The notes beneath the pieces are model-generated. The model was not told the origin of the DNA. It searched no databases and was given only the letters and a program-made list of their open reading frames with translations. From NCBI GenBank assembly GCA_044350705.1, contig JBILHA010000002.1, positions 178,295-242,294 on the forward strand: DNA of 64,000 nt, written 5' to 3'. Positions within the stretch are counted from its first letter, which is position 1. Each line of letters starts with the position of its first letter. A program made the position numbers and the translations under genes. Below are positions 14,887 to 63,735 of this stretch, in pieces. The stretch is from Candidatus Kapaibacterium sp. (GTDB lineage Bacteria > Patescibacteriota > Patescibacteriia > UBA9934).

Positions 14887-14902
14887 ATTTTTTGCAAAAA
14901 TA

Positions 14903-15556: not shown

Positions 15557-16116
15557 GTATAGGCATCTACCTTCCAAACCCCACCTTCTTGTACGAGCAC
15601 AACTTCAATCGCCTGATAACGAATTTCTTCATTTCCTGGGGATCCAAATGCCTCCTCACGCTGCGTTTGAACCATCAATGTCATGGATGTTTCTGTTTCT
15701 TGCGTGGCTTTCGCCCCGAGGCATGAGGTCGACACTCCATAATACCCGCCTTCTCCTCCCGGCTCTTGCGTGCGGGCTTGCTTTGCCTCTCGCTCCAGTT
15801 GGGCACTGAGTCGCGTGGTCACAAGGCCGAGTACATCATCAATATTTTGGAAGTCAGATTCAGAAGAATAACTTCCCACGCGCTCAACAAAGGTTCTTGC
15901 GACCGTTCCGGCAGAGACTTCTTGCGCTTTTGGCACATCCTCTGGATCATATGTTGGTTTTGGAGCAGGCGTGGTATTTGCCGCAGGAAGCGTCGTATTC
16001 TTCTCTTCTTCAATCTGTTGCGCGGTATTTTCCCGGGTCATCCAGAAAATAACTCCAAGCAACGCGAGGAGAATGACGACCGCTACACCGATTTCGATCA
16101 TGCGTTTTCTTTCCAT
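15544..16116 (-). CDS. Hypothetical bitopic membrane protein; candidate VirB8/PrgL-like T4SS component
   Basis: One N-terminal TM, a Pro/Thr-rich linker and a ~120-aa globular domain. Its position immediately downstream of VirB4 is the basis for the VirB8-like guess, which is positional only. Confidence 0.4.
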   Translation of the reverse strand: MERKRMIEIGVAVVILLALLGVIFWMTRENTAQQIEEEKNTTLPAANTTPAPKPTYDPEDVPKAQEVSAGTVARTFVERVGSYSSESDFQNIDDVLGLVTTRLSAQLEREAKQARTQEPGGEGGYYGVSTSCLGAKATQETETSMTLMVQTQREEAFGSPGNEEIRYQAIEVVLVQEGGVWKVDAYTWQD

Positions 16117-16125
16117 AAGAAATGA

Positions 16126-18048: not shown

Positions 18049-18052
18049 ATCT

Positions 18053-18754
18053 TTACGTCAGCTTGGTTTCTACGTGGAGCTTTCCAATTGCCTCAAGCGG
18101 CTGCGTTTCTCCCACCTCAGGATTATACGAGTTGTAGTAGAGCTCAATGAGTCCCTGCGTATCCAATTGCGCCACAGATAACCCCATGCTCTCTAATCCT
18201 CCTGCAATGAGCTGCGTTCGTTGCGTGATGGCATACCTCCTATCCTCGAATTGCTTCGCGTTGAGTTTCACGATAGATGCGGGATAAATAGCATTTTGCA
18301 GCTTTACAAAGAAGCCTTTTCCCTTTTCGTTGCCTTCACTGGCATCATACGGTACGACCACAAAAAAACGCTTCTGCATGATTTCTCCTAAATCTACAAG
18401 CTCTTTGATAAAGGAGGTATAGTCTCGAATTTGCGTTTTGAGGAGTTCGTTACTTATCCCTTCCTCTTGTGCCTTTAGACGCGCGAGATATCCATCGATA
18501 TTCATTTTCCTCGATTGGATGCATACCTGCAGAGGATGGTCGAGGCTGTTTAAAAATTGCATGTAGCCCTGGATGACTGCTTGCTGCTCGTCTTCGCTTT
18601 TGAGCGCAAAGTTAATGCTCGATACCATGAGCACCATGCGCATGGTTCCATCTTTCATCACTACCACGTTTTCTCGGATTTCAGCGATGTCCAAATAACG
18701 CTGGGTAGGAGGTCCAGCCTTTGGCCTTGCGAGTGCATTTCTTTGGTCTGCCAT
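18053..18754 (-). CDS. VirB4/PrgJ N-terminal domain encoded as a separate ORF
   Basis: 233 aa ending 4 nt before the ATPase ORF (TAA-AGAT-ATG, different frame). The segment YLDIAEIRENVVVMKDGTMRMVLMVSSINFALKSEDEQQAVIQGYMQFLNSL matches the conserved N-terminal region of Gram-positive VirB4 (PrgJ/TcpF-like) from memory. The summed length of 873 aa equals a full-length VirB4. Confidence 0.6.
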   Translation of the reverse strand: MADQRNALARPKAGPPTQRYLDIAEIRENVVVMKDGTMRMVLMVSSINFALKSEDEQQAVIQGYMQFLNSLDHPLQVCIQSRKMNIDGYLARLKAQEEGISNELLKTQIRDYTSFIKELVDLGEIMQKRFFVVVPYDASEGNEKGKGFFVKLQNAIYPASIVKLNAKQFEDRRYAITQRTQLIAGGLESMGLSVAQLDTQGLIELYYNSYNPEVGETQPLEAIGKLHVETKLT

Positions 18755-18757
18755 ACT

Positions 18758-19213
18758 TTATACCTGAGGGGGAAGTTCATCGTCGCCCTTGTAGACACCG
18801 CCGGTATTTACGATGAGCGTGAGCTCCGAAAGACGGGAGGATTCAAGGGGTGCTTTTCTTAGTTTTTCAGGCGGCTTTTCTTCCTCCACCTTTTTTAAAT
18901 ACACGCGAAGATCCGTATCAGAGAGCGTTTTATCCCACACTCTTTTTGCGGGCTTTTTAATATACTGCAGGAGGTTGAGCACGATATAGTGCAGTGGCTG
19001 GCCATTTACTTTTCCAAAAGCAAACGCTCCTCCGAGTGCGGCGATCGGGATACCAACCGCGAGCATGGGAAGCAGGCTCAAGAAAATGCGGTAGACTAAA
19101 AACTCTGCCACGATTACCCCTACCATGATGAGAAATTGGCGAAGCGTAATCGGGCCAATGATTTTTGGCTCTACATCAAGAAATTGCGGAACGACAAACT
19201 GGGATCGCGACAT
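18758..19213 (-). CDS. PrgI-like (VirB3-like) small membrane protein
   Basis: 151 aa with the N-terminal motif ...VPQFLDVEPKIIGPITLRQF... followed by two TM helices. It lies immediately upstream of VirB4, as in Gram-positive T4SS loci. Confidence 0.5.
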   Translation of the reverse strand: MSRSQFVVPQFLDVEPKIIGPITLRQFLIMVGVIVAEFLVYRIFLSLLPMLAVGIPIAALGGAFAFGKVNGQPLHYIVLNLLQYIKKPAKRVWDKTLSDTDLRVYLKKVEEEKPPEKLRKAPLESSRLSELTLIVNTGGVYKGDDELPPQV

Positions 19214-19230
19214 GCAGGAAGTATAGCAGA

Positions 19231-20982
19231 TTAGAACCGCGTTTTTTCATTCCAACGTGCTAATGCTTGCATCTCTGCAGGGCCCAGACTTTCCTGTCCC
19301 TGCGATCTTCGCCGTGCGGCAATTTCTGCAACCGCGACACCCGTATTCAGCGACTCTCCCATGAGTGTTACGTACAGGGTTGCAAGTGGACTCTTGCGCC
19401 ATGCGAGCACACCCCGTACCCGATCTTCGTAACTCGTTTTTTGTAATGACAAGAGCAGTGCTTCCATTTTTCTCACGGCTTCATCTGGATTTGTAGAAAG
19501 TCGTCGGAAGTCCGCGAGCGTCATGGTTCCTAACTGTTCAACAGGACCCATGAGCTTGTTTCCTGAGACGATATCCGTCACCTTTTTGGGTACGCCATTC
19601 TCCTGTACAGGAGCGACGCTTCCTACCGTTAACTCGACGACTGCTGGTGCAGGCTTTTGAGATTGCTTCGTGAGGGATGCAAATTTTTCCTCGGTTTTCT
19701 TTGCCTCCTGCTCTTCCCAGGCCTGCGCGTCTTCGTCAGTAATCTCAACGCGCACATCCTCTACACGCTTCAGCGCATCTCCCGCCACACGGTACGCATC
19801 TTGTGCCTGCAAGAGCGCCTGCATGAGGAGAGAAAGCTGCTCGCCTTTCACTTTATAGTCGCGTTCAAGAATATCGCGTGTTTGATACTGATCGCGAATA
19901 CCGCGGAGCATTTTTCCAACGATATCTGCGAATGCTGCGGTAGGAATCTTTCCCTCATCCAGAATAGCCTTACTTTTTTCGAGCGCAATATCAATCGCCT
20001 CTGAGAAGGCGACTTTTATGGCTTCATCTTGATTTTTCTTCGCTTTTTCAGCTCTTTTTTTTGCAATCGCTTCAGGCTTCTCTTCAAGAAGTGCCGGCTC
20101 TGACACCCTGTCCTTTTGCAGCGGCAGCGCGATCGATGCACGCTCTGCTTTTTGTCCTTGCTGTCGTTGCTCCTCCTGAATAGGCGAGGAAATCACCGGC
20201 ACTTCTGCCGCCATTTCATGAGAAGGAGGGATTTCGAGTGCGGTCGTGAAGACTTTCTCCTCATTTTTTGAAGATTCCTCAAGAGGCAATTGCTCCTTGA
20301 CCAGCGCCCCACTCTCTTTTTCTTGAGCATCCGCGACAACTTGCTCTTTCATTTTTTGCTTTGCACGGAATTCCTCTTCAGATACAAGCCGAACGCTCCC
20401 AAGCCCCTCTTCTATTACCTGCAAAAGTGTGTCAATTTGCTCTTTTGCAAGCCCTAATCCTCCAATGGTCAGCGGCCTTCCAAAAAAAATCTTTAAACTT
20501 TCTCCTGTTTTTTGTCCGCTCATTCGCTGCTCGAGGAGAAACGCGAGACGCTTCAACAAGAGATCTGAAAATGTAAGTCCGGCTTGGGATACCACTCTTC
20601 TTGCAAAGCTCTCTGCATCAATCATCTCCTTTTCAATGCGCATCCCCTTTTCGTAAAGCGACACATCAGCCCCCCAAATACGAAGCTGTTCCTCTATTCC
20701 TGGGAAAAAATCTTCCAGAGGGAGAAGTCTCAGGGCTGATACTTCCACGGCAAGTTCCTGAGATCTTGCATCGGAAAGATCAAATGCCTCCTTGAGGAGC
20801 CCGGGCACCTCTGCAAGAGGAATCTGCTCATCAAGGACAGCGTCCGTTAGATCAAGCAATTCTCCCACCCTTTCCTCTGGAATTTGATACTTCTGTCCAA
20901 CATCAATAAGCGCATCATAAATGTCGCCATCTTGAAGAAAGTTCCTTGTCGCATCGATATTAAGTAGCGTCGCGAGCGACAT
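19231..20982 (-). CDS. Hypothetical soluble coiled-coil protein (583 aa) in the T4SS cluster
   Basis: Long ORF with no TM segments and Lys/Glu-rich predicted coiled coils. No recognisable catalytic motif. Confidence 0.5.
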   Translation of the reverse strand: MSLATLLNIDATRNFLQDGDIYDALIDVGQKYQIPEERVGELLDLTDAVLDEQIPLAEVPGLLKEAFDLSDARSQELAVEVSALRLLPLEDFFPGIEEQLRIWGADVSLYEKGMRIEKEMIDAESFARRVVSQAGLTFSDLLLKRLAFLLEQRMSGQKTGESLKIFFGRPLTIGGLGLAKEQIDTLLQVIEEGLGSVRLVSEEEFRAKQKMKEQVVADAQEKESGALVKEQLPLEESSKNEEKVFTTALEIPPSHEMAAEVPVISSPIQEEQRQQGQKAERASIALPLQKDRVSEPALLEEKPEAIAKKRAEKAKKNQDEAIKVAFSEAIDIALEKSKAILDEGKIPTAAFADIVGKMLRGIRDQYQTRDILERDYKVKGEQLSLLMQALLQAQDAYRVAGDALKRVEDVRVEITDEDAQAWEEQEAKKTEEKFASLTKQSQKPAPAVVELTVGSVAPVQENGVPKKVTDIVSGNKLMGPVEQLGTMTLADFRRLSTNPDEAVRKMEALLLSLQKTSYEDRVRGVLAWRKSPLATLYVTLMGESLNTGVAVAEIAARRRSQGQESLGPAEMQALARWNEKTRF

Positions 20983-20990
20983 ACGTTTGT

Positions 20991-23867
20991 CTAAGTCATG
21001 TATCTTTCAGCGGCATTGTACGAACTACGGAGTCCACGAAGGCGCTTTATCTCGTCCGCAGAACTTGCCGTCGTTTCATGCACGCGAAGTGCAGCGCCGA
21101 TGGTACTCATCGCATCTTTTATCGCTGCTTTTTTTCCTGCATCCGTTTCTTTTCTCATCATCTCCGCCAGCTTGTTGAAATCTTCCTTTGAAAGACCGTC
21201 CACAATCGTCTTTGAGAAGTCGTTTCTCGCACCTTTCACTACCGCATCGCGAATCGCATCCTGCATGTGCGCCACAGAAGAAGGGTCCGCTTTCATAAGT
21301 TGCTGCACCTTCATGCGCTCATCTCGTCCAATATTCATGGATGGGTTTGTTGCAGGATTTGTGTCAACGCCTGGAATAATATCGGGAATGGTTTTCCCTG
21401 CCCCCAGAAGCTTCTGACGAATTGCATTTGCATCATCAATACTAATTCTTCCTCCTGCAGCCTCCATTGCCGCGAGCTGTGCTTGGATTTGGCTTTGCGT
21501 TGCCGCATTCATTTTTGAGAAGTCTGCCTTCGATTGTGCGAGCGCCTGAATTGCTTTATCAGCGTTTGCATTTCTTGATGAATCGAACATGGCGTCATTC
21601 AGCTGTCCTTCGCTGACTTGGCCATTCTCAAACGCTCTGCCGATATTCTCTACACTCTGCGTCTGCATGACATTCGTCACAAACTGCTGCTGCACCGAAG
21701 CAGCAGTAACCCCCGGAGGTCGTCCTGCCTTTGCCGCAGCCTTTGCTTCAGCATCGATTTGTTCTTTTGCAAGATTACTTACATCTGTTTTTCCTTCAAT
21801 AATTGCCTGAATAACGCTTGCCTTGCCTACATCAGTCGTCGTTAAATGCGCAGACGCCTCTGTGGTCTTTGATCGACCATATGTTCCTCGATTCAATTCA
21901 TCGAGTTTACTGACCTTCTTTCCACTTTCATACTTTGATGTCGCTCGACCCATTGCGTTTAGAACAGTTTCATCAGCAGCAGCCTGTGAACGCAAAAGGC
22001 GTCCGTTGAAATCTTCTGAATCGATGAATTTTTCTGCCTTACTCTTATCTACCTTTGCATAGAGATCCGCATATTGTGATCGTGCCTTATTCCATGCTTC
22101 TTTATCTATTGGTCGGTCATGCTCATGTTTATCAAAGTCACTCAAGGTGCTCTGTACGATTTCATCAAACTTCTCTTTGCCCACCTCCTTTTCTAAGGCT
22201 TTTGCAAAATCCTTATTCGTAAATAATTCTCCCCGAAGCACCTTCGCATCGGCTAAAATGTCATTTGAAATAGCGCCCGTTCCTGTCGCGGACTTCATCA
22301 ATCGAGATACCCTTTGCGCATCGGTCATGTGTGAAACGCGATCCTTTGCTGCTTTTTTCTCCTTTTCATCAAAACCATGCAAACGTGCATCAATCGAAGA
22401 GCCCGCCGACAAGAGAAGATCTGAACCCGTCGCAGCTCCTGCGGCACTCACAATATTTCCTGCGCGTTTCGCAATTTTCTTACCTCCAATGAGCGAAGAT
22501 TCGAGAGGGCTTTCTGCCACCTGCAGTCCACGCGTAGCGACCCCAGCTGCTTTCTGCGTTAAGTTGCCCGTGCGTTGTAAGAAAGCGTTCAGCCGAGGGC
22601 TGCTCCCTGCGAACATATTGGACCTTCCCAACATTCCTCCCGCTTTTCCCGCCAATTGACTGCCAACTCTTGCCCCCGTAACAGGTAAAGCAAGGGCTCC
22701 TCCAGATATTTTCCTTCCCAGAGAAAGCGCGCGGCGACCGGTCTTTTCATTGAGCGCCATTGCGGCGAGGCCTCCCATTTTTGACGCGATTTTCGCCGAC
22801 TCACGGATACCCATGAGTAAGAAGACGATCGCAATAAGGAGACCGGTGAAGTTGGTGGATTCGAAAATTTCGAGCGTGATTTGTCCGTAGGTTGTACGTT
22901 CTTCTGGCTCTGGGAATGCCTCTGCCTTTGCGAGGTGACCGTTTGAAGATGCGGCAAGCGCCAAATACAAGAAAAATGCGAGCATCGGGCCAAGGATGAG
23001 CGGGGGGACAAATCCCTGCACCCATTCATTCCACACGCGACCCAACCACTTGATGATATCCATGGACCCCCAGGAGAATCCTGCGAAAGGCGCCATGATA
23101 AATGCAATCCAGAGCATGATGATGCGCCAGATGAACGCTACGGCAAGCAGCAAGATGACGATCATCACCGCTACCTGCACCATGAGTTTTACGTAGGCGT
23201 TTGCAATGTTCGATGCCAATGTCACCAGCGTAATTCCCGCCTCAGACGCTCCTTGAAAAGTCGCCGAAGAGTACGTGGTTGCTTGCGGCATGACCATGAG
23301 CTGCGCAAAGTTTCCGGCCGCAATACTCATGAGCGCGTTTACGAACGTCATCATGACGATTTGACTTGCGTCTACAGCAAGACCGCAGATGGTTCTACTA
23401 AAGTTTGCAAAAACGATACCTAAGAAGAATCGAGGAAGGTGTTGCTGCCAGGCGCTACTTCCCTGCCCAACCATCGTTTTTACCGCCAAAATCAAGAGCA
23501 CAATGACCGCAAACATGTTTACCATGTCGCGCGTGAGCGTCCATCCGAGTGTGACGATGCTTGAGCTTGAGAAATTGTTGTAACTGAGGACATTGACGAC
23601 GATCACCTCAATGATCACGAGCGTGAGCGAACCAATCGCATCACCGATGAAGTTGATAATCTGCGCGAGGACGTTTCCAATCCACATGACCAAGCTGTTC
23701 GCCCAGGTGGATTCCTCGGGAGTTTCATATGCGGCATGCGCGATATCTGGTACCACCGCATGCATAAGCATGCCCATGCCAACAAAAAGACCAAGCACAA
23801 GTGCCGTGGTCCCTACTTTACGGAACAACCGACGCATCCCTCCAAACATATGGGAATAGTGTAGCAC
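20991..23867 (-). CDS. Polytopic membrane protein with a long hydrophilic C-terminal extension; candidate VirB6/TcpH/PrgH-like T4SS channel component
   Basis: 958 aa with about 8 TM helices in the first ~400 aa, then a ~550-aa Ala/Lys-rich coiled-coil tail (TcpH-like architecture). The start is GTG at 23867 or ATG at 23849. Confidence 0.5.
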   Translation of the reverse strand: MLHYSHMFGGMRRLFRKVGTTALVLGLFVGMGMLMHAVVPDIAHAAYETPEESTWANSLVMWIGNVLAQIINFIGDAIGSLTLVIIEVIVVNVLSYNNFSSSSIVTLGWTLTRDMVNMFAVIVLLILAVKTMVGQGSSAWQQHLPRFFLGIVFANFSRTICGLAVDASQIVMMTFVNALMSIAAGNFAQLMVMPQATTYSSATFQGASEAGITLVTLASNIANAYVKLMVQVAVMIVILLLAVAFIWRIIMLWIAFIMAPFAGFSWGSMDIIKWLGRVWNEWVQGFVPPLILGPMLAFFLYLALAASSNGHLAKAEAFPEPEERTTYGQITLEIFESTNFTGLLIAIVFLLMGIRESAKIASKMGGLAAMALNEKTGRRALSLGRKISGGALALPVTGARVGSQLAGKAGGMLGRSNMFAGSSPRLNAFLQRTGNLTQKAAGVATRGLQVAESPLESSLIGGKKIAKRAGNIVSAAGAATGSDLLLSAGSSIDARLHGFDEKEKKAAKDRVSHMTDAQRVSRLMKSATGTGAISNDILADAKVLRGELFTNKDFAKALEKEVGKEKFDEIVQSTLSDFDKHEHDRPIDKEAWNKARSQYADLYAKVDKSKAEKFIDSEDFNGRLLRSQAAADETVLNAMGRATSKYESGKKVSKLDELNRGTYGRSKTTEASAHLTTTDVGKASVIQAIIEGKTDVSNLAKEQIDAEAKAAAKAGRPPGVTAASVQQQFVTNVMQTQSVENIGRAFENGQVSEGQLNDAMFDSSRNANADKAIQALAQSKADFSKMNAATQSQIQAQLAAMEAAGGRISIDDANAIRQKLLGAGKTIPDIIPGVDTNPATNPSMNIGRDERMKVQQLMKADPSSVAHMQDAIRDAVVKGARNDFSKTIVDGLSKEDFNKLAEMMRKETDAGKKAAIKDAMSTIGAALRVHETTASSADEIKRLRGLRSSYNAAERYMT

Positions 23868-24273: not shown

Positions 24274-26022
24274 TTATTCCTCGATCACGACCCGCAGTCC
24301 GCAGCCACTTGACGTGGGATCATCGGCGGCGACCACCGACTGCGCATGTCCGTTCCAGGTTGCAGCTACCGTTCCCTGGATGGTTCCGGGCGGAAACGGC
24401 CCCAGGCAGGACCAGCTTGTCGTACCAGAGATGACGTACTCCACCGAAAAGCGGAGTGCGTCGCCCGGTTCCATGACGCGACGGTAGGTGAGGTGGGAGG
24501 TATCTGACCCCTCCGCAAGCACCCCCACCCAGCTCCGCGGATCACCACCCGCGGGGGTGAACTCCCCCGAGAGGGTGATGCGGCTTGCCGTCGCCGCATC
24601 TGGCGTTGTCCAGGTGAGCACGAGCTCCCTCTCTTCCTCGATGTCGGTCTCCGCCGGTGCTTCTTCTTCCTCTTCCCGCGTTTCTTCTTCCTCAGGCGGA
24701 TCACCCGCGCTCTCGTAGGCTCCTCCCCCAACCGCAGCACCGCCGCAGGTGGTGATCAGAGACTCGGTGAGGCAGGAGATGCCCGTCGCACAGCTCCCGC
24801 GCACGGTCACGATGCTCTCGAACTCGCTCCGCTCCACTTCGAGCACCGTTCTTTCCCAGAACCCCATGAGCAGATAGACGCTCCACGTCTCGATGGGCAT
24901 CGCAACACCATCGCTCATGAGGTACACGTCGCTTGCATCGGCCGGAGAGATGAGGCTTCCATCGCGGTAGCGCGCGTTGCCGCTGTGCACCGGATAGTCG
25001 CCAAGATCGTCGGAGAGATCGGACGCCTGGAGCAGGTCATCGTACGTCGCGGCGCTCATGCCCCACGACTTCACAACCCCCTGCCAGCCGAGCGTACCGA
25101 TCTTCTGTCTCGCACGATACTCATCGCCGCGCGTTCCCATGAGAAGCCACACGCCGGTTCCGCCTTCGTCGTCGTACACCGCGCGCACTGCGGACGCATC
25201 TCTCAGGCTCTCGCCTTCTTCGAAGCAGGAAAGCTCCTCGGGGGAGACGAGCGCAACATGCGCGAAGTCGTAATTGCGGGAGGTGAAGGCGCTCTCGGTC
25301 ACGAACACGCGCCTCTTCCCTTCTTCGATGAGGTACACCGCGCTCTCGAAGGGCGTCTTCACGAGCGTGCCGTTCGGGTGCCAGCGCGGCACAGGAAGGG
25401 ACGACTCGTACCGATGACCGGACGTGAGATCGCAGATCATGCTCGTTACCGGCGTTGCCTGTGCCGGCGTTCCCCGCGTGGCATTGCGCGCGAAGAACTC
25501 GAGCCCCTCCTGCGAGATTCCCTGGACGCCGTCGTCCGCTGCATCTCCCCAGTGACGGCCGATATGCAGATGGTCTCCCGTGGAGTTCCCCGTCGTCCCT
25601 TCGATTGCGATGATCTGGCCCGCCACCACTTCGCTCCCATCCTCCACAAAGATGTCGGACAGGTGCGCGAGGATGATATAGGTACCGTCACCGAGATCGA
25701 TGTTGATGTGCAGACCGAAGTTCGTCGTCGAATTGCGGTCGTGCACGTACGCCACGCCCGCGACCGGCGCGTACACCAGATCGTCGGCGTCGTTGGGGGT
25801 GTCGAAGTCCACGTCGTAGCGCGTTGCGGTTCCCCGGTGGGAGTAGCTCCCTCCGGTCCCCTGGCTGCAGCGGTAGCTCTCCCCTTCGGCGAAGGGCAGA
25901 TGAACCGTCACCGCGTCACGCCCTCCCCCGCCGATTCCGGTGTCTTCAGGAATGCTCAGCGGCGGCAGCGGCGAACAGCTACAGAAAAAAAGTACGAGGA
26001 GCGCACAAATAATGAAGGTCAT
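24274..26022 (-). CDS. Secreted/lipoprotein M23-family metallopeptidase with a large C-terminal domain; high-GC gene
   Basis: Signal MTFIICALLVLFFCSCS. The M23 motifs are HRGTATRYDVDF and GNSTGDHLHIG (G-x-STG-x-HLH). An acidic linker PPEEEETREEEEEAP is present. GC is about 65% versus about 45% in flanking genes. Confidence 0.75.
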   Translation of the reverse strand: MTFIICALLVLFFCSCSPLPPLSIPEDTGIGGGGRDAVTVHLPFAEGESYRCSQGTGGSYSHRGTATRYDVDFDTPNDADDLVYAPVAGVAYVHDRNSTTNFGLHINIDLGDGTYIILAHLSDIFVEDGSEVVAGQIIAIEGTTGNSTGDHLHIGRHWGDAADDGVQGISQEGLEFFARNATRGTPAQATPVTSMICDLTSGHRYESSLPVPRWHPNGTLVKTPFESAVYLIEEGKRRVFVTESAFTSRNYDFAHVALVSPEELSCFEEGESLRDASAVRAVYDDEGGTGVWLLMGTRGDEYRARQKIGTLGWQGVVKSWGMSAATYDDLLQASDLSDDLGDYPVHSGNARYRDGSLISPADASDVYLMSDGVAMPIETWSVYLLMGFWERTVLEVERSEFESIVTVRGSCATGISCLTESLITTCGGAAVGGGAYESAGDPPEEEETREEEEEAPAETDIEEERELVLTWTTPDAATASRITLSGEFTPAGGDPRSWVGVLAEGSDTSHLTYRRVMEPGDALRFSVEYVISGTTSWSCLGPFPPGTIQGTVAATWNGHAQSVVAADDPTSSGCGLRVVIEE

Positions 26023-26651
26023 GGGCCGACGTCTCCGGAGATGAAACGATGATTCGTTTCTTTTCCCCTTGCAGAGGGAGTCCCAAAGGAACTGCAAGGG
26101 AAACCGGAGCGCAGCATATGCCCTGGGGTAAGGACTCCCCTCCTTACCCCTTTATTTATTAAGTATGGAATGCTGTTTGCCCGGCTGTCGTTTTGAAAGC
26201 GCGTTTTTTGGTACCCGCTTTCAGGGCGATCAGGCGCGCGTTTGTCATTCCTGCAGACACTCACGAACGTTCCTTCAAGGTCGTGCCCGAACTCGTCGGT
26301 CGTTCTGCTTCCATATCACCATAAAAAAAGAAGTCTTCAAGTAAAAACCTTTAAAAACTCTTCTCTTTTTTGCGCGTTTTCGTTTCTGGTATCTTTTTTT
26401 CTTTTCATTGTCAGAAAACAATGAACAGCTTTTTCGCAAAACATCTCTTTGAAGCGATGCGTTGTCCCCTCTCCAAAAACACCGTGGGAAAAGCTGTCAG
26501 GAGTGCAAAAACTGTGGATAACCTACAAAAAACACGCCCCTTGCAATGGGCGTGTTTCCTCTCTCTTGAAGCTCGCGTATACGCCCCTCCTGGCCTCCCC
26601 GATGGGGAGGATCTCGGTGGAAACTCCCCTGACTCACCCGAGACGCTTTCA

Positions 26652-27020
26652 TTACTTTCCCTGCAAACGCTTTACTTCTTCGTGAATACGCCCCACTACA
26701 CTTTCCACATCTTGAAATACTTCCTCATTCTTTATTCTCATCACGTGAAATCCCGCTCCTATGAGATAGGCCTCACGCTGCATGTCATAAATTCGATGTC
26801 CAAGTTTTTCATGAATTTTTCCATCGATTTCTATTACCAAACGGAGCGGCCAGAAACAAAAATCAACAATAAAAGGACCTATGCCGTGCTGCCTACGGCA
26901 CCTTACTCCGAGCGCATCGTGCGAAAGATGACACCAAATCACCCTTTCCGCCTGAGTCATCCGCTTTCTCAATTCTCTCCGTCGCTCTTTACTCCTCGCG
27001 GGATTGATGAGTCTTTTCAT
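26652..27020 (-). CDS. DUF559 endonuclease-domain protein (Vsr-like / PD-(D/E)XK fold)
   Basis: 122 aa with ...QAERVIWCHLS...GVRCRRQHGIGPFIVDFCFWPLRLVIEIDGKIHE..., matching the DUF559 pattern. Confidence 0.7.
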   Translation of the reverse strand: MKRLINPARSKERRRELRKRMTQAERVIWCHLSHDALGVRCRRQHGIGPFIVDFCFWPLRLVIEIDGKIHEKLGHRIYDMQREAYLIGAGFHVMRIKNEEVFQDVESVVGRIHEEVKRLQGK

Positions 27021-27291
27021 AGGCTTCCATCCTATCGCAACGCGCTTCTAAGAGTTTCCAAAGGAGCTTCCATACAAGTTTCCAAGCGCACTTCCAAGAA
27101 CCCCCCTCCGGGGGAGGGCTTGGGAGGGGGCCCGGACTCTCATATAAGCCTCTGCGTTTCCCTTTATTCCCACCAGAAATCCCCGCGTTTCCATGAGAAA
27201 TCCCTGCGTATCCTCGCAAAATTCCCTTCACTTGCCTCTTTTCCCCACCCCACCTTGACCCCCCTCATTTATCCACTCTTTTTCCCAAAAC

Positions 27292-27320
27292 TTGCTTTTT
27301 TTCAAAATTTTCTGTTATAT
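27292..27320 (+). promoter_or_regulatory. Candidate sigma70-type promoter for the high-GC lipoprotein gene
   Basis: TTGCTT - 17 nt - TTATAT, about 135 nt upstream of the ATG at 27456. Confidence 0.35.
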
Positions 27321-27455
27321 TAGCGCTGTCTAGGCATCTCCTGCGGCGCAAGCCGAGGTGAGAAGCCAAAACACGTACCTTAAACAACACCACCCCACCC
27401 ACCCGGTAAGTGCCGGGAAAGGTGTCGTGGGCAGTCCATGAGTAAGGAGAGCGCC

Positions 27456-28205
27456 ATGCGCATCTTGATTCTGGCCGCCCTGCTGGGCGGCTGCGGGGGA
27501 TCCTCCCCCGACCTCGCCAACGGCGAGGTCGGCAACGACGGCAACGACACCAACCCGGATGACAAGACCGGCAAGGCCACCCTGTCCTACACCGTCTCGG
27601 TGATGGGCAAGGTCGAGCCCTGCAAGATCAACATCGAGTGCGAAGACATCGACCTGCTGACGGTCTCCTCCGGAGAAATCGTCGAAGTCGATGTCCCCGC
27701 CTCGTGCGTGATCTCTGCGGGTCTCCTGGACTACACCGACATCTTCGGGTACCCCGTCCACCTGGGCGAAGATGGCGAGTACTGGGCGGCAACCCCGCTC
27801 ACGCTCGACCTCGAGCCCCAGGACGAAATCCTGGATCAGTTCATCACCTTCAACGTCTTCGAGCCCGGCTACTACGACTGCGAGTACGACAAGTACGAGC
27901 TGGATGAGTCCGCCGGAGATCTCAAGGGCGAGCAGTGGATGGAGGACCATCCGGTGGACGAGCAGTTCATCGAGGTCGGCCAGGACGGCATCGTCGAGAT
28001 CGAGGGCAACAACGAAACCCTCGATGTCGTCGGTGGACCCCAAAGCCACCTGCAGACGGTCGACGACGGTCTCGTCCTCGTGGTGGCTGGTGAGGAAATC
28101 CCCTACTACATCGCCGAGTCCGACATCGGCGTTGACAACTTCTCCCTCACGGTGGTCAACACCGAGTTGGGACATGTGTCCGACGTCCGGTGCGAGCTGG
28201 ACTAG
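27456..28205 (+). CDS. Acidic lipoprotein of unknown function; high-GC gene
   Basis: Lipoprotein signal MRILILAALLGGC (lipobox LGGC) and a strong SD AAGGAG 7 nt upstream. GC is about 65%. The antisense 355-aa ORF is an artefact of the high GC. Confidence 0.7.
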   Translation: MRILILAALLGGCGGSSPDLANGEVGNDGNDTNPDDKTGKATLSYTVSVMGKVEPCKINIECEDIDLLTVSSGEIVEVDVPASCVISAGLLDYTDIFGYPVHLGEDGEYWAATPLTLDLEPQDEILDQFITFNVFEPGYYDCEYDKYELDESAGDLKGEQWMEDHPVDEQFIEVGQDGIVEIEGNNETLDVVGGPQSHLQTVDDGLVLVVAGEEIPYYIAESDIGVDNFSLTVVNTELGHVSDVRCELD

Positions 28206-28410
28206 GCGTGGGTGGGGGTCGCGTACCCCCGGTTCCGCAGCAGCGGGGCCGGGGGTCGCATCTTTTTTTGGGGAAGTAAGGAGTGAAAGGAAGGGTGAAC
28301 TTTTTATACTATTTCGTGTGGGAACGTTGGATTCCGGGTCCCCTCGGAGACCTCGGGGCAATGCAAGTCCGGAATGACAGAGCTCCAATCGGAACACCTA
28401 TCTCTAAATC

Positions 28411-28436
28411 AAAAACAGCTCATCTGAGCTGTTTTT
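28411..28436. terminator. Bidirectional terminator at the 3' end of the giant gene
   Basis: AAAAACAGCTCA-TC-TGAGCTGTTTTT: a perfect 12-bp stem flanked by A/T runs. Confidence 0.65.
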
Positions 28437-28439
28437 GAT

Positions 28440-31400
28440 TTACGGAGTTACCGTGATGACTCCATCGTACTCCACCCAAGGATTTATCGAGGAGTTTTGT
28501 TCTGGGTAAATTCCGTATGAACACTCGCTGTAATCCATTGTACTGGACGCATTGGCATCGTTGTACATTCCCACAAAGCATCCGCCTGGACTTGTCGTTC
28601 CATAGCTTGAAGTGCTTGATTCGATTGCGTTTCCATCCGTACATGTTCCCGTACACCAGCCCCAGTTGTCGCGGACGTGGACGCGGGGACGGAAGACGCA
28701 GGAATCTGCGGCATCGTCACCGGTTTCGTCGATCGCACAAGGGAACTCGTCGTATTCGCCGTCGCCATCGGTATCATCACAGCGGTCGCCACGAAGTACT
28801 TCTGATGTACAGGTATAGACGTGGTTGTAGTTGAAGTAGTACGGATCGCAGCTTTCATCGGTAAGACCCCATTCAGAATCAAGGTCACATTTTGATTCTT
28901 GCTGGCCGTCCTGCAAACCACGAGCGTTCTTGAAGTAGTTCTCGTCGTCATCTGATCCGGTTTGCATTCCGTCTCCCCAGTCAATCATGACCTGACGGAT
29001 AGGAAGCTGGTTCTTGTCTGCGGCCGCGTAGAACTTAATCGTCGCATTGAAGAACTGAATTCCGGATTGATCACCTGTTTCTTGACCGTTGAGGGTAATC
29101 GCACTCTGCGTTCCTTCTTCACACATAAGGCCGTCACTTGAACACGAACCGACATCGACCGCCCATACCGTTGGCGGAACTCCTTCTGCCGGACGGACGT
29201 CGTACGCTTCATCATCTGCATCATAGTCTGCCCATAGACTCGTCTCCGTAGGAAGAACGGAGAAATAATCTCCTACATCTTCCCAATCACCATCTATATA
29301 TTCTCGTTCACCTGTAAAGTCACCCTTCCAGATCCATAGGGCAGCATCTGCTACCGAAGCGAATACTTGCGTAATTGATTCAAGCGAGTACTGCAGTGGC
29401 TCTGAAGTCGCCGTATAGAAGTAGTATGAGGATGTATCTGATACGTATGCGTACGGATGTCCATCCCATCCATATCCCACACCGTCCCAGCTTCCTGTAA
29501 AGGTGAATGGAATATATGAGCGTGCTTGTAACAGCTCAGATGCAGGATCACCTAAGGTTCCTACGTCAGGATATCCGCTTGGGCACGAATCAAATGTAAC
29601 TCCCGTCGCAATCGTAATGTCGTCTCCTCCGTGATAGTTATCTGAGCACTGCGCTACATAGAATGGCGCTTCGTATTCCTGAACCGGCTTATCGAGATTG
29701 ATAGCGCCAAATATGCCTGGGGTTGTTTCTTGATTGTATTCAACATTGGAAGACAGGTCTGACTGCAGCGTATGTCCATTGTAAACACGATCCGTCCATG
29801 CATACGATCCTTCGTCATCAGATGAAACCTGCACTACTACAGAACATGCAATATTTTCATCCATAGCATCATGGAATCTGTCTGCATAGATTTCAGGAGC
29901 GTTCATCCAAAGATTTCGGTATCCGGTTCCTCCCGATGAGGACTCCGTATCGTCTGCACCGTCGCTTTGTGGATAGTCCGTAATATCTAGCACGTCATAG
30001 AAAATATCCGCCTCTGCGTATTCTCCTCCACGCATGTAAATACCGCGTACTTTACAGTCCTGATAATCATCTGCAACCGTGTCGAAATGACCGTAGGTTC
30101 TCTCCTCTGAATCGCTACTTCCGCTGCTCGTATCTCCTCCTCCTTCTTTTGGATTGAGCGATGCATACCAGACACGCGTTCCGTCATTACTCGTACCTTC
30201 ATTGGATATTCGACTATCTTCGCTTGGGTCACAAGACTCATAGTCGTACTCCACTTCCCCATCGCTTTCTACATATTTCGCAGAGTTCTCAGGAACGCAT
30301 ATATACGGACAGTCATTATCTCCCACGCCATCCCTACACGTATCAGCTGAGTAGTTATTACTCACTCCCGCACCACGGGCACGTGCTCCCATGATCGCAA
30401 AGAATCCCTCCGGGCAATGCACCGCCTGATCACAGGCCGCATCACTCGTGCTCCACGCATCCTCATCGTTACCCACACTACTATCATCACTCTCCGCACA
30501 TGCAACACCCTCCGTATATCCATCTTGAATTACGCTGCTTGGCGAAGGGGTGATCGTTGAGAATGCCTGTACGTCTGCACACATGTAAATATCTTCGAAG
30601 AATCCCGCGCTTGCGTACTTTGCCTGCAAGTCTGTATCTCCCTGTAGGCGGTCAACCGGCAACCAAGAGATACACGCCTGCTTTGTACGGTCGCCAAGGA
30701 TATTGAGCGACGTATCTTTCTCGAGACAGAAGCCATTCAAGCCGTAGATTACGTCTTCTCGGGTGGACTTTGCACAGGTCGATCCATCTCCACACTGCTC
30801 GTCTTCCGTGCAGTATCCTCCTGAACGCTCTCCACCCTGACATACACCCAATTGATCAGCTACCGCAATACAGGATCCGGATTCGCATGTGCTTCCATCA
30901 GTACATATTTCCCCTGCATCCGTATCCGCCTCTTCCTCACCATCTCCATCAAGATCACCTCCACAAATCGAGAATTCTGGATCCCAATCTTGGTTGTAGT
31001 ATCTCGTTTCCATCCCTTCTCCGAAGCTCACCTTGGTGTACGAACAGTCACATACTTCCCCATATGCACACGCTTCAACGTTCTCAAATCCCGAGAGAAG
31101 ATCGTAGGGCAATGCATCATACGTAGGATCGGTGTCAATCGTTCCTTGATCCGAAGGGTCATACCACGCTTCAACAACTTCATTTGGGAATGGACTCGTT
31201 CCCTCTGGGTATGCGCGACAAATCTTTCCTTCAGTAACGCCGTTTGCGTACGTTTCACCATCAGGCGTCAGCAAACACTTGCTATTGATACATGATCCGA
31301 GTTTGAGTTCGGCAGCGGGAATGAAGGTTTCTGCAGAGCTACAGGTGCTCGCTTCTGCGGTTTCACTATCGTAGTCTTCGATCGCCACGTCATTACCTAC

Positions 31401-34400
31401 TTCTGCACACGTACCGCTGTAACACGTTTGACCTTCTGAACAATCAGCTGCGGTCTGACAGAGTACCGGATTTCCACTGGCATCTTCGTCGAGGTCGTAA
31501 CATGCGCCAACAATACAGTCACCATCGCCGCATTGGTCGCTTGAAGCACATGCGGCACCGTTTGACGAGCAGTACCCCACTGCACACGCATTGCCATAAT
31601 CTTCCGAACAGCTTCCGGCATCAAGAACGAGCGCGTAGTCAACCTCATCAATGAGTCCTGCGGCTTCCGTCGCCTCTGGAGACATACAAATACCCGAACC
31701 CGCCATACATGCCTCTCCCACGGCTTCACACGAGGAGTCGCTGGCAAGCGAGGGGGAAGCTGTACTCGCACCATATACACAATATGCAATCGGGCTTACA
31801 TCAGCTTGACTCAGCGACTGCACGGGGAATAAATCAGGAATCGCCATGCCCGAGTATTCATTTCCATACCAAGAGGTATCGCGTGAGGCATACCACTCCT
31901 TATCAAAGAGCACATCTGGCTCTTCCATGTCCCACTCTGCGCAGGAGGAAGTTCCGGTTGTTGCATCGTAGTCGGTACAGAGCTCGATATCGGTACACGT
32001 GTTGATGAAGCTTGCGGTATCTTCGTCCCAACGTGGGTTATCGCTTGCACAGGCAAGCCATTCTGAACATGCACGGTCGCGATTTACTTTCAATACCGTG
32101 TTTACATCATTTTCTTGGCGAGGCACCCAATCGAAGTTTGCATTGAGTTCATCTTCCATCCATGCGCTAAATCCAAGCGATCCAAAAAGTCCTGGATCAA
32201 CACGTACCTGGGTTCCACACGTTACCGCTTCAACACTTCGTCCAGATTCACTTTCAACCAATGCACAGTCCGTAGAATCTACACAGGAGCCACCGAATAC
32301 GAAGAGGTCATCTCGATCGTAATCCCCCCCAAACGAGAGTTCGCTTGCGAGCTTTGCTCGATAGGTATCTCCATCGGTTAAATCGTATACCTCCCCGTAG
32401 TCATAAATACAGCGCGTAGCACAGAGGTCAATTTCAAGACCATCCGACGTGGTAATCGTTGTATCTCCCCCATTCTCACAATCGATAGGATCGACCAACC
32501 CGTATGGCTCGGTACCAAACAATTCATCAGCATGACGACTCGATACTTCCGTTGCAGAAGCATTTGCCGTAAGTGAGGTGCTGGACGTGTCATAGAACAT
32601 GGCACACCCGTTCTTGAGCGACACTTGTCCATCACACTTTTGACTATCCGAAAGGCCGTATTCACTTAGGGTGTCGTTGTTGAGATAGAAATAAGATGTT
32701 CCGTCGCTCATGCCGTAAATCTCCCCATCATCTTGCGCGAGGGTGTCCTGGAATTCGCTACAGGTGTCATAGGTTGCGTCACATGTTCCTGCCCAGCCGC
32801 CAAATCCAGCATCTCCGTTCTTCCAAATACCAGACTCATCCCCTCCAATGACATACGAAGGATTCTGCGCATTACAAGTCTCCCCCGATCCACAATCCGC
32901 GCTACTTCCACATGCATCTCCTTCATTTCCCCCGGAATCTTCACACGTTCCGTAACAGAAGTCCTGCGTTCCTTCGCGGAACCATCCGGTGTATCCCACC
33001 CCGTCTATCGTGACATCCGTGCGGTATTCACACTTTTGATCAAGCGGGTGCTTAAAGTAATACGTTGCCGCCTGGTTGGTTGTGAACGCATCACAGAAAA
33101 GCTCTTCATGGGCGCAGAGCGTGCTGTCGTATTCATCTGGAAGATTTAAGAAGTACACACTTTCTGCACCGTCCGTACTATTACGATCTTGATTCCAGTC
33201 TGGATCACCGAATTCTGTACATCCTGCAGCGGAAGCAGAGCACGTTACCTCGTCGGTCACCACCAAGAACATTGCCTGGTCTGCAGGCACGATGGTTGTT
33301 TCCGGTCCATACGAAACGGCAGTTTCGCCAAGTCCCCAAGCAGGCGTGAAGCCATCCATTGAGAAGAGACAGGAAGATTCACCTACCGCAATCGTACAAA
33401 GGTATGGCGAAGCCTCGTCGAAATCTGCCGAGGATTCATAGAAGTAATAACACGCGGTTGCCGATGTTGCAGTATCCGGCTCACTGTCTCCATCGTCGTC
33501 GATATTGTTACAGGTTGCGTTCACAGTTTTTGCCGTGTGACTTGCGCTTTCCTGGGTCTTGAAGAAGGCGTCGCATCCTACTTTGTCTTCATCACAGAGT
33601 GAGCTAAAGCTCTTGAGATACTCAGTCTCATCGTCTTGCGTCGTGTATTCCTGACAACCCAAGTAATACTGCGGGCTTGCATCTCCCGTGACCGATTGAT
33701 CGCACGACGCAGGGGTTACCCAAGAATCTCGGATCACCGTGATATTCTCCTCACCCTCTCGGAGAACGATATTGTCGACATATGCCGAACCCGTAGGCAC
33801 GAGCACAAGCGACGTACCCTCACCAAAACGTGGGTAATCCTCCGCATCCATGACGAGCGGTCCGAGAGTAATTTGCTGCCATCCGTCTTCAAGCTCTACT
33901 GCGCTATCAAATGCGAGATCAATAGAAGGAGATGAAGGATCTGCCTCAAAGTCAAAGCCTACCTCAAGCGTACCCGTTCCCTTTGCGACCACACTTACCG
34001 TGTAGGTTTTTCCGGCAAAGAGTTCGTTATGCAGCGTTCCGCAATAGCCATCATTCTCCGCTATCGTACATTCTCCACCAAAACTGAGCGCCGTACCCGC
34101 ACATCCTCCTTCGGTCGTACAGGTTCCCCCGTTATCTGCGATAAAGGAAGTGACCGGTCCGGTCATGAGCATGGAGTGCCCATCAGAAGCAAGTGATTCG
34201 TTACTGTAGGTCGCATATGAAGCTGATGCCGCATCCCATTGATTGAGCGTTCCGCTTTCAAAGATTTCTTCGAGCACTAAACGACTATTTCTGCTTCGAC
34301 CTCCTGCGTATGCACGACAACCGTTTGCCGAGGCATCACACGAGGTACTTTCTTCTGGGTAGCCGTAATAGCGACACTCTCCCGAGTCTCCCACGTAGTA

Positions 34401-37400
34401 TCCTCCTGAATCTTCACAAGTGATCTGTTGCGCTGCCGCTGTCTCCCCTGCGACTTCCGTCTTTCGGTATGCCTGACAGGAATTATGAATCGTCACGGTT
34501 TTTGTCCATTCTCGGTAATGAATGTTTCCGCTTTCGTCGTAGAATTCTCGACAATCTGCGTTCGTAAAGATATCTGCACGGGAGTTACAGTCTTCCGTAT
34601 CCCAATCGTAATAGCCGTCTCCATCATCATCAGCGGAGTCATTACAAGTAATGCCGTCATCGGTCGCGGTCCAGTTACTACAAGGCGCCAAGTTAGGAGC
34701 GGTATCGGTTACCCCATCGGTTCCTGTGTGCGTATAGCTTGAAGAACCGAGATCTGACTCCAAGAGCGTCCAGGTTTGCAGCTGATATCCGTCTTCATCT
34801 GATCCCTCCCAGGTGTAATATGTCGCTTCTGTTCCTGCAGCTTGTGTTTCAGTGACACATGCACGCAAGAAGCTGTAGTACTCCTGCTCTTCTGTTGCGA
34901 GGTTGGTAAATTCGTCACATCCCACTTCTTCAGCGGAACACTCAGTTGCGGTATCAGGAATGAAGTACACCGCATCTATTCCATCAGGTTCATAGAGCGT
35001 TGCCTCTTGGCGATAGGTGTCGTATCCCGCACACTCCGAAGGACAGCTATCTAACTCCGTTGCAATACCTGAAAGCGCAGGATCGCCGTTTGTTGGGGTG
35101 TACATCGTACATCCCATGTCTTGCTCGGAGCACACCTGTGCGTAGTTTGCACATTCCGCAGGATCATCTTCGCTTCCAGTACATCCAAGATATGCAGGCG
35201 CAACCTTTGCGACTACGGTCGTGTAGTCGGTGTCGCTATATCCATTTACTGGAGTAGACGTATCTTCCCCTTGTTCGAGCTGCATGCTATCAACATAGCC
35301 ATCGAATGCGAGAACGTATAAATCACCGAATACGCGCAATGACGGCTCTGGCAGAGGCGGAACGGTAAAGGTACAGCTAAAACGCTCATACGACGTTCCT
35401 TCCGGCTGCATGTTTTCAATTCCTACCCCGTCGGTTCTTGTTGCGCCAAAAATATCTACGTAGCTATCGTCACAATCTCCAATAATTGCCAGTCCTTCAA
35501 TATCAATGCCCGCTCCTTCTTCATCTTTCAATGCTAATCCTACGCTTACCGTATCGGTACCTGCATCGGTTGCTTGGCGCGCATAAAATGAAAGCGTGTA
35601 GGTACTTGCTTGCGTTAATTCAATACCAGGCTGATAGAGCGCTCCACGCCCACCGGATCCTGGAGAAATCGCCACCTCTCCCTCTCTTGCAACACTGCCA
35701 TCCAAAGAAACGGTTGAAGGCCATGAGGTTCCTGCAAGGTGATAATCAAACCAGCCGTCTGGACGGTCATCGCTGTCGTCATCCTCTTCAAAACTTGGGT
35801 TCAATACGACATTGAGGCGAAGATCGGTGTCGCGTTCGATCAGCGTGGAACATCCTCCTTCTTCTTCATCGCAATCTTCGATCTGACTATTGAAGTAGAT
35901 ACGAGATGCGTATGTTTCGCTGTCTGCATCCGCGCCTGCAATATCATCAATTGCCGCAAAAGCAAATGTTCCGTCATCTTGTTGCTCTTTTACCGTGTTA
36001 TACCAGCGACATCCTACGGTGTCCGAAGTACAAGGTCCGGGATCAACGGTATTCTTTAACAGCGCGATATCATCCCCCGCTGAATCTTCAAACACCAAAC
36101 AAGAAGCCGCGTATTCTGGACAGCTCTCTCCGCGGAATTGCCACGTATTTTCTTCTGCCACACAGTAGCCGTATCCTCCAATACAGTTTCCATTTTCATC
36201 CTCTGCGATACAGCTTGGCATATCCACACACACCTGTGCGCGTTCATCTGCCTCCTTGGTCAGCAAAAGTTCTCCATACGCCTGCATGCGGCACTGGGTA
36301 TCCGGGTACTTCAGCACCCAATCCGGATCGATCATTTTGCACCAGGGATGGTTATCATCCGGAAGGCCATCTGGACCGCAGGAGTTAAATCCGTTGATTA
36401 CCTCCTGAAGGGTAACCGGGCTTTCTGCAGAATTTGCTGAGGAATTTGCCGCAAGTTCCCATCCGATAGAAATTACGCGTGCTTTTCGAAGCTTTACCAA
36501 GTTTCCATAACAGAATCCATACGTGTAACAGAAAGCATCCTGGTTGCGAGCCGCGTCAGAGGAAGGAATGAGCGGCCAATCCCCATTCATAAGACCGTCA
36601 TCGATCGCTTCTTCAATGGTTAGGGGCGCCCCAGACTCTGCTCGTGCAATTGCTGATACAAAATTTGAATCCGCTACACAGTTATATAGTCCGCGCGTTG
36701 ATGAACCTGGGCAGGTAATAAACTCCGACAGAATACTGTAGTTCGTAATCTGCAACGGCGCTGCAGTGAGCAATGAGCGATACCGATCTGCCGCTGCCTG
36801 CTGCGTTCCGAGCGCAAAACTCTCAGGATCAAACGGATCAACCTGCGTCACGTCAAAATCAAAGAGCCCCATCCAAATGCGCTCCTGGAGCTTTGAAAGC
36901 AGGGTATTCGTAAATACACTTGCTGCATGTATTCCCACCTGTCTAATCAGGTCTTTATTTCCCAGCATGGCGAATGTTGCCTGCTGACGTACATCTCCAC
37001 TGTTTTTCTGCGCATCTTTTACCTGCGTTGAAAGGATATCAGCCGGAGTTTCTACATTTCCCGTAATAAAATCTACAATATCCTTAAATCCTCCATCATT
37101 GAGCTTTTTCTGTACACCGATCAGGGGAAGAAAAGTCGTTTCTCCAAAGACATCGGTATACACCCCAAGTCCCGCGCCAAACTCTGCCTTTTGGGGATCG
37201 TACATGTTGGCAAGTTCCGCAAGGACGAGCTGGTTTTTAAAAGGCGCTTTGTATCCCTCTAAATCTGCAATAAATGCCTGCCAAGTTCCTTCTGGACCAA
37301 ACATTTTGTTAAAGTCACATTTTGGCTCTGGACGATCGAAGACCCCCTTAATACCCAACTTGAACTGCAGCAAAATGTACGGGGTTGAAGGCGCACAAAG

Positions 37401-63658: not shown

Positions 63659-63735
63659 GGGCGATTAGCTCAGTTGGTTAGAGCGTCACATTGACATTGT
63701 GAAGGTCAGAAGTTCGAGTCTTCTATCGCCCACCA
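63659..63735 (+). tRNA. tRNA-Val (anticodon GAC), 77 nt, CCA encoded
   Basis: Acceptor GGGCGAT/ATCGCCC, anticodon stem-loop TCACA-TTGACAT-TGTGA, T-arm AGAAGTTCGAGTCTTCT, and a 3' ACCA. Confidence 0.9.

Follow-up and report, generated by a model that had tools for sequence, protein, structure and literature searches.

In a 64,000-nucleotide stretch of the Candidatus Kapaibacterium sp. assembly GCA_044350705.1 (contig JBILHA010000002.1; hereafter the window), the gene for an acidic lipoprotein (27456..28205, + strand) is preceded by a conserved and structured 5′ untranslated leader of ~128 nt (27328..27455, +), the start of which we placed from the position of the -10 promoter element. We tentatively propose, with a probability of about 0.45, that this leader is a new cis-acting RNA that, in the manner of the ompA 5′ untranslated region (UTR), stabilises its mRNA for high expression of the lipoprotein. 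The gene is vertically inherited and lineage-restricted and belongs to an ultra-small bacterium of the Patescibacteria whose closest named relatives are Candidatus Uhrbacteria, and both the leader RNA motif and the lipoprotein family are new, though of known kinds. The Patescibacteria, or candidate phyla radiation (CPR), are a large and mostly uncultured group in which post-transcriptional control is almost uncharted, and this locus offers a concrete, conserved and unclassified leader RNA that is directly testable.

Conservation and structure of the leader RNA

We recovered DNA for ten homologous loci (L001–L008 and L012–L014, where L004 is a second contig with the same sequence as L003). Among the seven distinct close loci, identity across the promoter and leader is 0.68, compared to 0.72 in the coding sequence (CDS) and 0.41 in the 240 nt upstream; similarity begins at the -35 element and extends to the ATG, and DNA further upstream is unalignable. 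A covariance model of the leader (R1) had a single match in the window (27326-27458, 76.8 bits) and one match per homologous locus, with no second copy of the leader in any of these sequences. The original prediction, made from the letters of the window alone, had suggested a cis-regulatory RNA in a C-rich leader of ~135 nt; the conservation of the leader in homologous loci and its shared secondary structure support the first suggestion, for which we infer a mechanism below, and the leader is indeed long and C-rich, with a length closer to ~128 nt.

The leader folds better than all of 200 shuffled sequences (z = -3.3), and three helices are agreed on by the RNAalifold consensus and by single-sequence folds. 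The 5′-proximal hairpin P1 (27333..27367, +) has the form GGUGUCU...GGACGCC in most loci and starts 10-11 nt past the -10 hexamer in all seven loci, no more than ~5 nt from the predicted start of the mRNA, where ompA-type stem-loops sit; in the more distant L012 this place is taken by another hairpin, equally far from the -10. P1 is enlarged in the window, with an outer extension that pairs 27327-27329 with 27371-27373, and in the window, L005, and L001 insertions at its apex lengthen the hairpin and leave it unbroken. In several loci the first nucleotides, UGU, are able to pair with (A/G)CA just 3′ of P1.

The second helix, P2, joins a C-rich 5′ strand (CCAC-CC-CACC, 27390..27399, +) to a G-rich 3′ strand (GGUG-UC-GUGG, 27421..27430, +). 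In the family these strands read CCACC-CC-CACC and GGUG-UC-G-A-GUGG, and both are invariant in the seven sequences that have them, with the window as the sole exception: it is one C short on the 5′ strand and GA short on the 3′ strand, matched losses through which one base pair and a bulge vanish together. Between the two strands lies P3 (CCCGGU-AAGU-GCCGGG, 27402..27417, +), which folds alone in all seven leaders, consists of 5-7 bp, and has a loop that varies in sequence and length; its changes include one clean G-C to A-U double change and several wobble changes. P3 is the CCCGG-N6-CCGGG hairpin that had been picked out in the original prediction and it is real, but the pseudoknot proposed alongside it is backed by no conserved pairing. 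L005 (35..139) holds a natural variant of the leader, in which an enlarged, window-like P1 and P3 are present, and the P2 3′ strand and the next ~30 nt are deleted, such that P3 runs straight into the Shine-Dalgarno (SD) sequence; this locus could act as a natural P2-open mutant.

In the consensus structure 95.5% of the paired cells of the alignment can pair, versus 37-50% when the partners are slid. Covariation is modest, with double changes at three pairs among seven sequences and a score that is reached by 13 of 500 shuffles. The structure is thus supported by thermodynamics, conservation, and structure-preserving indels, and covariation statistics alone are no proof of it.

Neither a hairpin followed by a U-tract, as in a terminator, nor a conserved anti-SD helix was found in the leader, where the unpaired probability of the SD is 0.34-0.59; the leader therefore shows neither of the forms expected of a riboswitch expression platform (terminator/antiterminator or SD-sequestering helix), and SD sequestration was rejected given that no helix for it is conserved. 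A leader peptide with a TPPPP motif was likewise rejected: candidate ATG/GTG codons close to the transcription start lack conservation, two of the loci read ATG-TAG, and the reading frame is disrupted by a 1-nt indel. CsrA-type GGA sites in P1 were dismissed because they are not conserved in the window. Searches of the window with Rfam 15 (4227 models) at gathering thresholds returned only tRNAs. In the leader region, at E-values up to 10, we obtained only a sub-threshold match to Lambda_thermo (26.9 bits against a threshold of 50), which we dismissed as driven by the SD and ATG, and eight homologous loci yielded nothing relevant to the leader. Exact and degenerate pattern searches of metagenome, genome, and viral contigs recovered no true copies of the leader; the matches in L009-L011 are chance matches inside coding sequence of 72% GC. 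In the literature we found nothing on this leader RNA or on the lipoprotein family.

Promoter, translation start, and terminator

A -35-like hexamer, TTGCTT (27292-27297, +), was read from the sequence, and together with an extended -10 element, TGtTATATT (27313-27321, +), at a spacing of 18 nt it forms a predicted promoter of the sigma-70 extended -10 type, TTGCTT-N18-(TGt)TATATT. The original prediction had located this promoter correctly, with a TTATAT hexamer at 17 nt for which the extended -10 is the better reading. The sequence TG(T/C/A)TATA(T/G)T was found in eight of eight close loci as well as in L012 and L013, and this promoter type is common to nine distinct homologous loci; TTGC(T/A)(T/A)-type hexamers occur at the equivalent position in most of them (L008 has TTGTGT and L013 has TTGGAC). 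Invariant positions of the alignment (A1) are T25, T26, T29, G30, T32, A33, T34, A35, and T37, and the GGAG of the SD is likewise invariant. A generic consensus promoter scan did not list this promoter because its -35 matches at only three of six positions.

The SD, AAGGAG (27444-27449, +), stands 6 nt ahead of the ATG at 27456, and its duplex energy with CACCUCCUUU is -8.2 kcal/mol. The public (JGI) call of the gene begins at an ATG 18 nt upstream (27438); the N-termini of homologues and the SD spacing favour 27456, given that with a start at 27438 the SD would fall within the CDS and the N-termini of the homologues would not match. Downstream of the gene lies an intrinsic terminator (28225..28268, +), in which a G+C-rich hairpin of 14 bp (28225-28256, 11 G-C pairs) is followed by the T-run CGCATCTTTTTTT, and a similar hairpin and U-run are found 3′ of the gene in L012, L013, and L014.

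Composition and synteny of the gene

The lipoprotein gene has a GC content of 0.62 compared to 0.499 for the whole window, such that the high GC noted in the original prediction holds and its figure of ~65% is somewhat too large. GC contents at the three codon positions (GC1, GC2, and GC3) are 0.65, 0.34, and 0.88, against a background GC3 in the window of 0.39-0.64 (about 0.47). Because GC2 is 0.34 and the surplus falls at third positions, the excess is synonymous, and amino-acid composition is ruled out as its cause; an assembly chimera is also ruled out, as the same junctions occur in independent assemblies. C-ending codons make up 59% of the CDS. The window also encodes four tRNAs with G34 anticodons (11068-11144, 52505-52580, 52857-52943, and 63659-63735) for four-codon boxes, namely Arg-GCG, Ala-GGC, Leu-GAG, and Val-GAC, which would decode by Watson-Crick pairing the C-ending codons preferred in high-GC genes.

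Homologous genes have a GC content of 0.60-0.66, except for the most distant, in L014 (25% identical), at 0.53, and their flanks have a GC content of 0.40-0.55; GC3 stays elevated in all ten homologues with recovered DNA, L012 and L013 having 0.83-0.86 and L014 having 0.66. The order of gene, terminator, and 3′ end of a convergent giant open reading frame (ORF) is common to the window, L001, L012, L013, and L014, and hence this context is present in four of the four homologous loci that reach past the 3′ end of the gene. In the window the giant ORF (28440..37808, -) encodes an acidic protein of 3122 aa with a CBM_4_9 domain. On the other side lies a divergent, high-GC M23 peptidase gene (24274..26022, -; GC3 0.76), and an M23 gene with raised GC3 adjoins the lipoprotein gene in L001 and is 3.3 kb off in L014. 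For the GroEL of the window, matches at 76-80% identity carry the label Patescibacteria group or Candidatus Uhrbacteria.

A proposed stabilising leader and its alternatives

If the leader is an ompA-like stabiliser, the near-consensus extended -10 promoter would drive strong transcription of a monocistronic unit, the first nucleotides of the mRNA would be held in the P1 hairpin, and this 5′-terminal stem-loop and the structured UTR would shield the message from 5′-end-dependent decay. P2-P3 would form a second conserved, extended hairpin before the SD, which would stay available for translation, and the strong SD, the C/G-ending codons matching the nearby G34 tRNAs, and the 14-bp terminator would complete high and durable expression. 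P2 may also be recognised by a factor, either a protein or a small ligand, as we propose because its sequence is invariant. The lack of a terminator or a conserved anti-SD helix in the leader is the reason that we prefer stabilisation to regulation.

The stem-loop of the ompA 5′ UTR is said to have been found by Emory, Bouvet and Belasco in 1992 to stabilise its mRNA, and in Bacillus 5′ stem-loops protect mRNA against RNase J. With the ompA 5′ UTR (133 nt) and the aprE/ermC stabilisers, the locus shares a ~130-nt leader before an envelope-protein gene, a hairpin at most a few nucleotides from the predicted start of the mRNA, another structured element ahead of an exposed SD, and a monocistronic unit with a strong terminator. 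It differs from them in that there is no sequence or covariance-model similarity, the host is a Patescibacterium, the 5′ end is a predicted one, and P2 is invariant in sequence, which stabilisers do not need.

Several observations weigh against a stabilising role. The transcription start is predicted only, and the expression level and the effect on half-life are inferred. The seven distinct leaders come from two to three subclades, and covariation among them is weak, as P2 never varies, the changes in P1 are one-sided only, and 13 of 500 shuffles equal the covariation score. That both strands of P2 are invariant goes beyond the need of a passive stabiliser. GroEL, which is usually very abundant, lacks an SD and is unremarkable in its codon usage (GC3 0.52), and the design of the lipoprotein gene is therefore not merely that of any highly expressed gene. 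Lastly, L013 and L014 are without P2 and P3, and L013 is without a clear 5′ hairpin.

The invariance of P2 could also reflect a riboregulator, that is, a riboswitch or protein-binding operator in which P2-P3 detects a signal and regulates lipoprotein translation, an explanation that we consider somewhat unlikely. The P2 strands and the internal loop are unchanged while the protein drifts to ~50% identity, the P3 loop carries UCC(U), complementary to the GGA(G) of the SD, in five of seven leaders, and in minimum-free-energy folds of L001 and L006 the G-rich strand pairs alternatively with CAUUCACACC; the neighbouring M23 gene likewise has a long conserved leader. Cell-wall-related genes often have riboswitch-like leaders (ydaO/c-di-AMP and lysM motifs), which also counts in favour of regulation. 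However, a terminator and a conserved SD-sequestering helix are both lacking, the P3 loop of the window (AAGU) has no UCC, the window, L003, and L007 do not conserve the alternative helix, and there is no Rfam match, with seven sequences being too few for a statistical covariation test. The envelope-gene leaders in Rfam (ydaO/c-di-AMP, lysM-TM7, lysM-Actino, and NLPC_P60) resemble this one as structured, conserved 5′ leaders of secreted or envelope genes, further parallels being the M23 and LysM genes next to it and its occurrence, as with lysM-TM7, in the CPR; yet, tRNAs aside, none of the 4227 models reaches threshold on the window or on eight homologous loci, and the leader here differs in architecture, comprising a 5′ hairpin and one extended hairpin with internal loops, with no recognisable expression platform. 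It is very improbable that the leader has no function as RNA, with P2, an invariant inverted repeat, serving as a DNA operator for a transcription factor, or with the similarity of the leaders arising from recent common ancestry in a sample of only two to three subclades. The spacing of the P2 arms ranges from ~21 to 32 nt with the length of P3, which is a poor fit to a dimeric DNA-binding site, G-U wobble substitutions, relevant to RNA and not to DNA, are tolerated in P1 and P3, and the DNA just upstream of the -35 is unalignable (0.41 identity), which argues against common ancestry alone; moreover, the element lies at about +60 to +105, distant from the promoter.

A foreign origin of the gene, as implied in the original prediction, would make its composition the scar of a recent transfer from a high-GC donor, and this we regard as highly improbable even though the codon usage is clearly non-native by the usual criterion of atypical composition. 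The Karlin codon bias of the gene is 0.92 compared to a mean of 0.30 (standard deviation 0.08, maximum 0.47) for 35 other genes of the window, or ~7 standard deviations off the background. GC content climbs and drops at both edges of the transcription unit, an SD is present in an SD-poor genome, a DUF559 endonuclease gene adjoins, and a different high-GC set occupies the gap between the GroEL and release-factor (RF) genes in a relative (L015), indicating that such genes do turn over. Against this, homologues that are only 25-58% identical are all surrounded by DNA of lower GC, and across independent assemblies their placement with respect to the giant ORF and the M23 gene is unchanged; GC3 is still 0.66-0.88 although synonymous sites must be saturated. 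Other high-GC genes (M23, LysM, and those of L015) also have an AT-rich promoter of the extended -10 type. The gene is flanked by neither an integrase, a tRNA junction, nor repeats, and only the DUF559 gene lies nearby. Rather than being absent from relatives, the gene stands at the same position in L001, L012, L013, and L014; searches of phages, plasmids, and 185,579 GTDB species genomes recovered no homologue, and none of the 46 clusters has a named high-GC member that could mark a donor lineage. Recent transfer is thus largely refuted, and an ancient transfer followed by selection on GC3 may have occurred. Compositional outliers in CPR genomes are therefore not necessarily foreign.

The lipoprotein and its family

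The gene encodes 249 aa and ends with a TAG stop at 28203-28205. We recognised lipoproteins by a basic n-region, a short hydrophobic h-region, and a [LVI][ASTVIG][GAS]C lipobox, and the N-terminus here, MRILILAALLGGC, has this layout (M-R-ILILAALL-GG-C13, with the Cys13 codon at 27492-27494). The extremely acidic lipoprotein with an LGGC lipobox described in the original prediction is thereby confirmed: Cys13 is invariant in 33 aligned family members, most of which show L-x-[AG]-C, and the mature protein has 54 D+E versus 7 K+R, for a net charge of about -47. Two further cysteines, C142 and C246, are almost invariant and would be compatible with an extracytoplasmic disulfide.

A protein search of 5.8 billion sequences recovered the gene itself and seven homologues of 49-58% identity, and a hidden Markov model scan of 1.84 billion representatives recovered 46 clusters, nearly all of them lipoproteins of 230-270 aa. 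In agreement with the unknown function that had been noted for it, the protein has no sequence relatives in Pfam, NCBIfam, or the PDB, even when a 33-sequence profile is used. P0034 (2624 aa, 20 partial matches) was rejected as a relative because it is a generic InlB-type repeat protein.

AlphaFold2, run with the 33-sequence alignment, predicts two all-beta domains at a predicted local distance difference test (pLDDT) score of 89.5, joined to the lipobox Cys by a disordered acidic linker of ~25 residues; an earlier model from 8 sequences had a pLDDT of 72. Foldseek found no significant match to the PDB for either model (best E = 5e-3, with a query TM-score, TMq, of at most 0.27), and the domain-level likenesses are weak (5aq0, transthyretin-like, with a target TM-score, TMt, of 0.47; the cathepsin C exclusion-domain barrel, TMt 0.44; 3hoe; and 4o3x). 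TbpB-type handle-and-barrel lobes and Bacteroides adhesin-like lipoproteins share with this family an N-terminal lipobox and an all-beta, two-domain mature protein, and the predicted model would weakly resemble their fold, with a beta-sandwich and an 8-stranded barrel. They differ from it in that there is no significant structural match and no sequence relationship, and in the extreme acidity and narrow distribution of the present family (~46 clusters in 1.84 billion representatives).

Because the position of the gene beside the giant CBM-bearing gene is constant, we infer most simply that the lipoprotein is an abundant surface protein working with the giant protein. Directly upstream of the M23 gene lies a monoderm-type type IV secretion cluster (16126..23867, -), whose members include a VirB4/TraG-like ATPase, a PrgI/VirB3-like protein, and a 958-aa polytopic membrane protein. 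This layout matches type IV secretion system loci with M23/LysM hydrolases described in Patescibacteria (PMC12102498). The locus thus presents a new, confidently modelled lipoprotein family that is always found with a giant surface protein, next to a cluster of type IV secretion and cell-wall hydrolase genes, machinery that is thought to mediate the epibiotic lifestyle.

High-GC envelope genes in this lineage

The window has three high-GC tracts, comprising the M23 gene (GC3 0.76), the lipoprotein gene, and a LysM-domain gene (42831..43382, +; GC 0.66, GC3 0.85) that lies between the release-factor gene and GroEL. Each of the three has an envelope protein as its product, an extended -10 promoter, and an SD sequence, with SD free energies (dG) of -6.6, -8.2, and -10.7 kcal/mol for the M23, lipoprotein, and LysM genes, respectively. 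Most window genes with secure starts, by comparison, have no detectable SD and a dG near 0, examples being GroEL, ValRS, RF, the VirB4-like gene, epimerases, and the giant ORF, so that the canonical SD, which the original prediction had set apart from those of neighbouring genes, is indeed distinctive. The LysM gene has the promoter TTGATT-N17-TGCTAAATT, a short leader of ~30 nt, and a GGAGG SD.

The M23 gene has a conserved leader of ~300 nt (26023..~26330, -, in the window; 1901..~2200, -, in L001), for which Rfam gave no match. Within this leader are a block resembling a promoter, TTTTTTATGGTGA(T/G)AT, and a perfect hairpin, GGGGTAAGGA-GGGGAG-TCCTTACCCC, whose loop, GGGAGTCC, is exactly complementary to GGACTCCC ~40 nt downstream; this complementarity suggests a pseudoknot or an alternative pairing.

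In L015 (NCBI GCA_964599455.1, CAZREA010000002.1), whose GroEL is 83% identical, the GroEL-RF gap (~12050..18150) holds six other high-GC genes set apart by AT-rich spacers, with long leaders and GGAGG SD sites. They encode two acidic lipoproteins and four Asp-rich proteins, at least three of the four being lipoproteins, and the Asp-rich proteins contain the repeat CDDxDxxINPGAxExCDGxDxDCDG (D+E 0.30, GC3 0.85-0.90). The L015 lipoproteins are not homologous to the family described here and were rejected as members of it. Judging from gene content, the GroEL-RF gap looks like a turnover hotspot for this high-GC class.

High GC3 is a maintained property of the gene class, and in the lipoprotein gene an inherited and probably selected trait. 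As its cause, mRNA stability or decoding may be under selection, or biased gene conversion may act on often-exchanged surface genes; the codon bias of highly expressed genes alone is unsupported as an explanation given the GC3 of 0.52 in GroEL. We consider it unlikely that these genes form a distinct expression class of secreted, very acidic envelope proteins (lipoproteins, M23, and LysM), with a GC3 of 0.76-0.90, SD sequences, mostly long structured leaders, turnover at hotspots, and a dedicated post-transcriptional programme. Were this true, the programme would amount to new riboregulators, or to selectivity in translation or mRNA stability, as might apply when the cell attaches to its host. 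A bolder version would have the adjacent conjugation-like type IV secretion system deliver the class into a host cell that has a high GC content and uses SD sequences, with the class tuned to be expressed there. An envelope gene class that has kept GC-rich codons and SD sequences through long spans of evolution matters in CPR genomes for how horizontal gene transfer is detected, genes are called, and expression is predicted, and a lineage-wide split in gene-expression signals would be more surprising than the leader motif or the protein family themselves.

Other features flanking the lipoprotein gene

The spacer between the M23 and lipoprotein genes encodes a DUF559 protein, as had been predicted (26652..27020, -; E = 1.7e-28). 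A public (JGI) ORF of 300 aa on the + strand (26370..27323) spans this gene and, in view of that score on the opposite strand, is probably spurious. Tandem direct repeats occur between the DUF559 gene and the lipoprotein promoter at 27053-27096 (12-nt period, AG(T/C)TTCCA..., 3-4 copies) and 27167-27208 (two copies of a 21-nt unit, TT(C/T)CCA..GAGAAATCCC(C/T)GCG), and neither could be aligned to the other homologous loci. On the far side of the gene, a near-perfect palindrome, AAATCAAAAACAGCTCA-TC-TGAGCTGTTTTTGATTT, at ~28407..28442 overlaps the stop codon of the giant ORF, and is probably the terminator of that ORF and possibly bidirectional.

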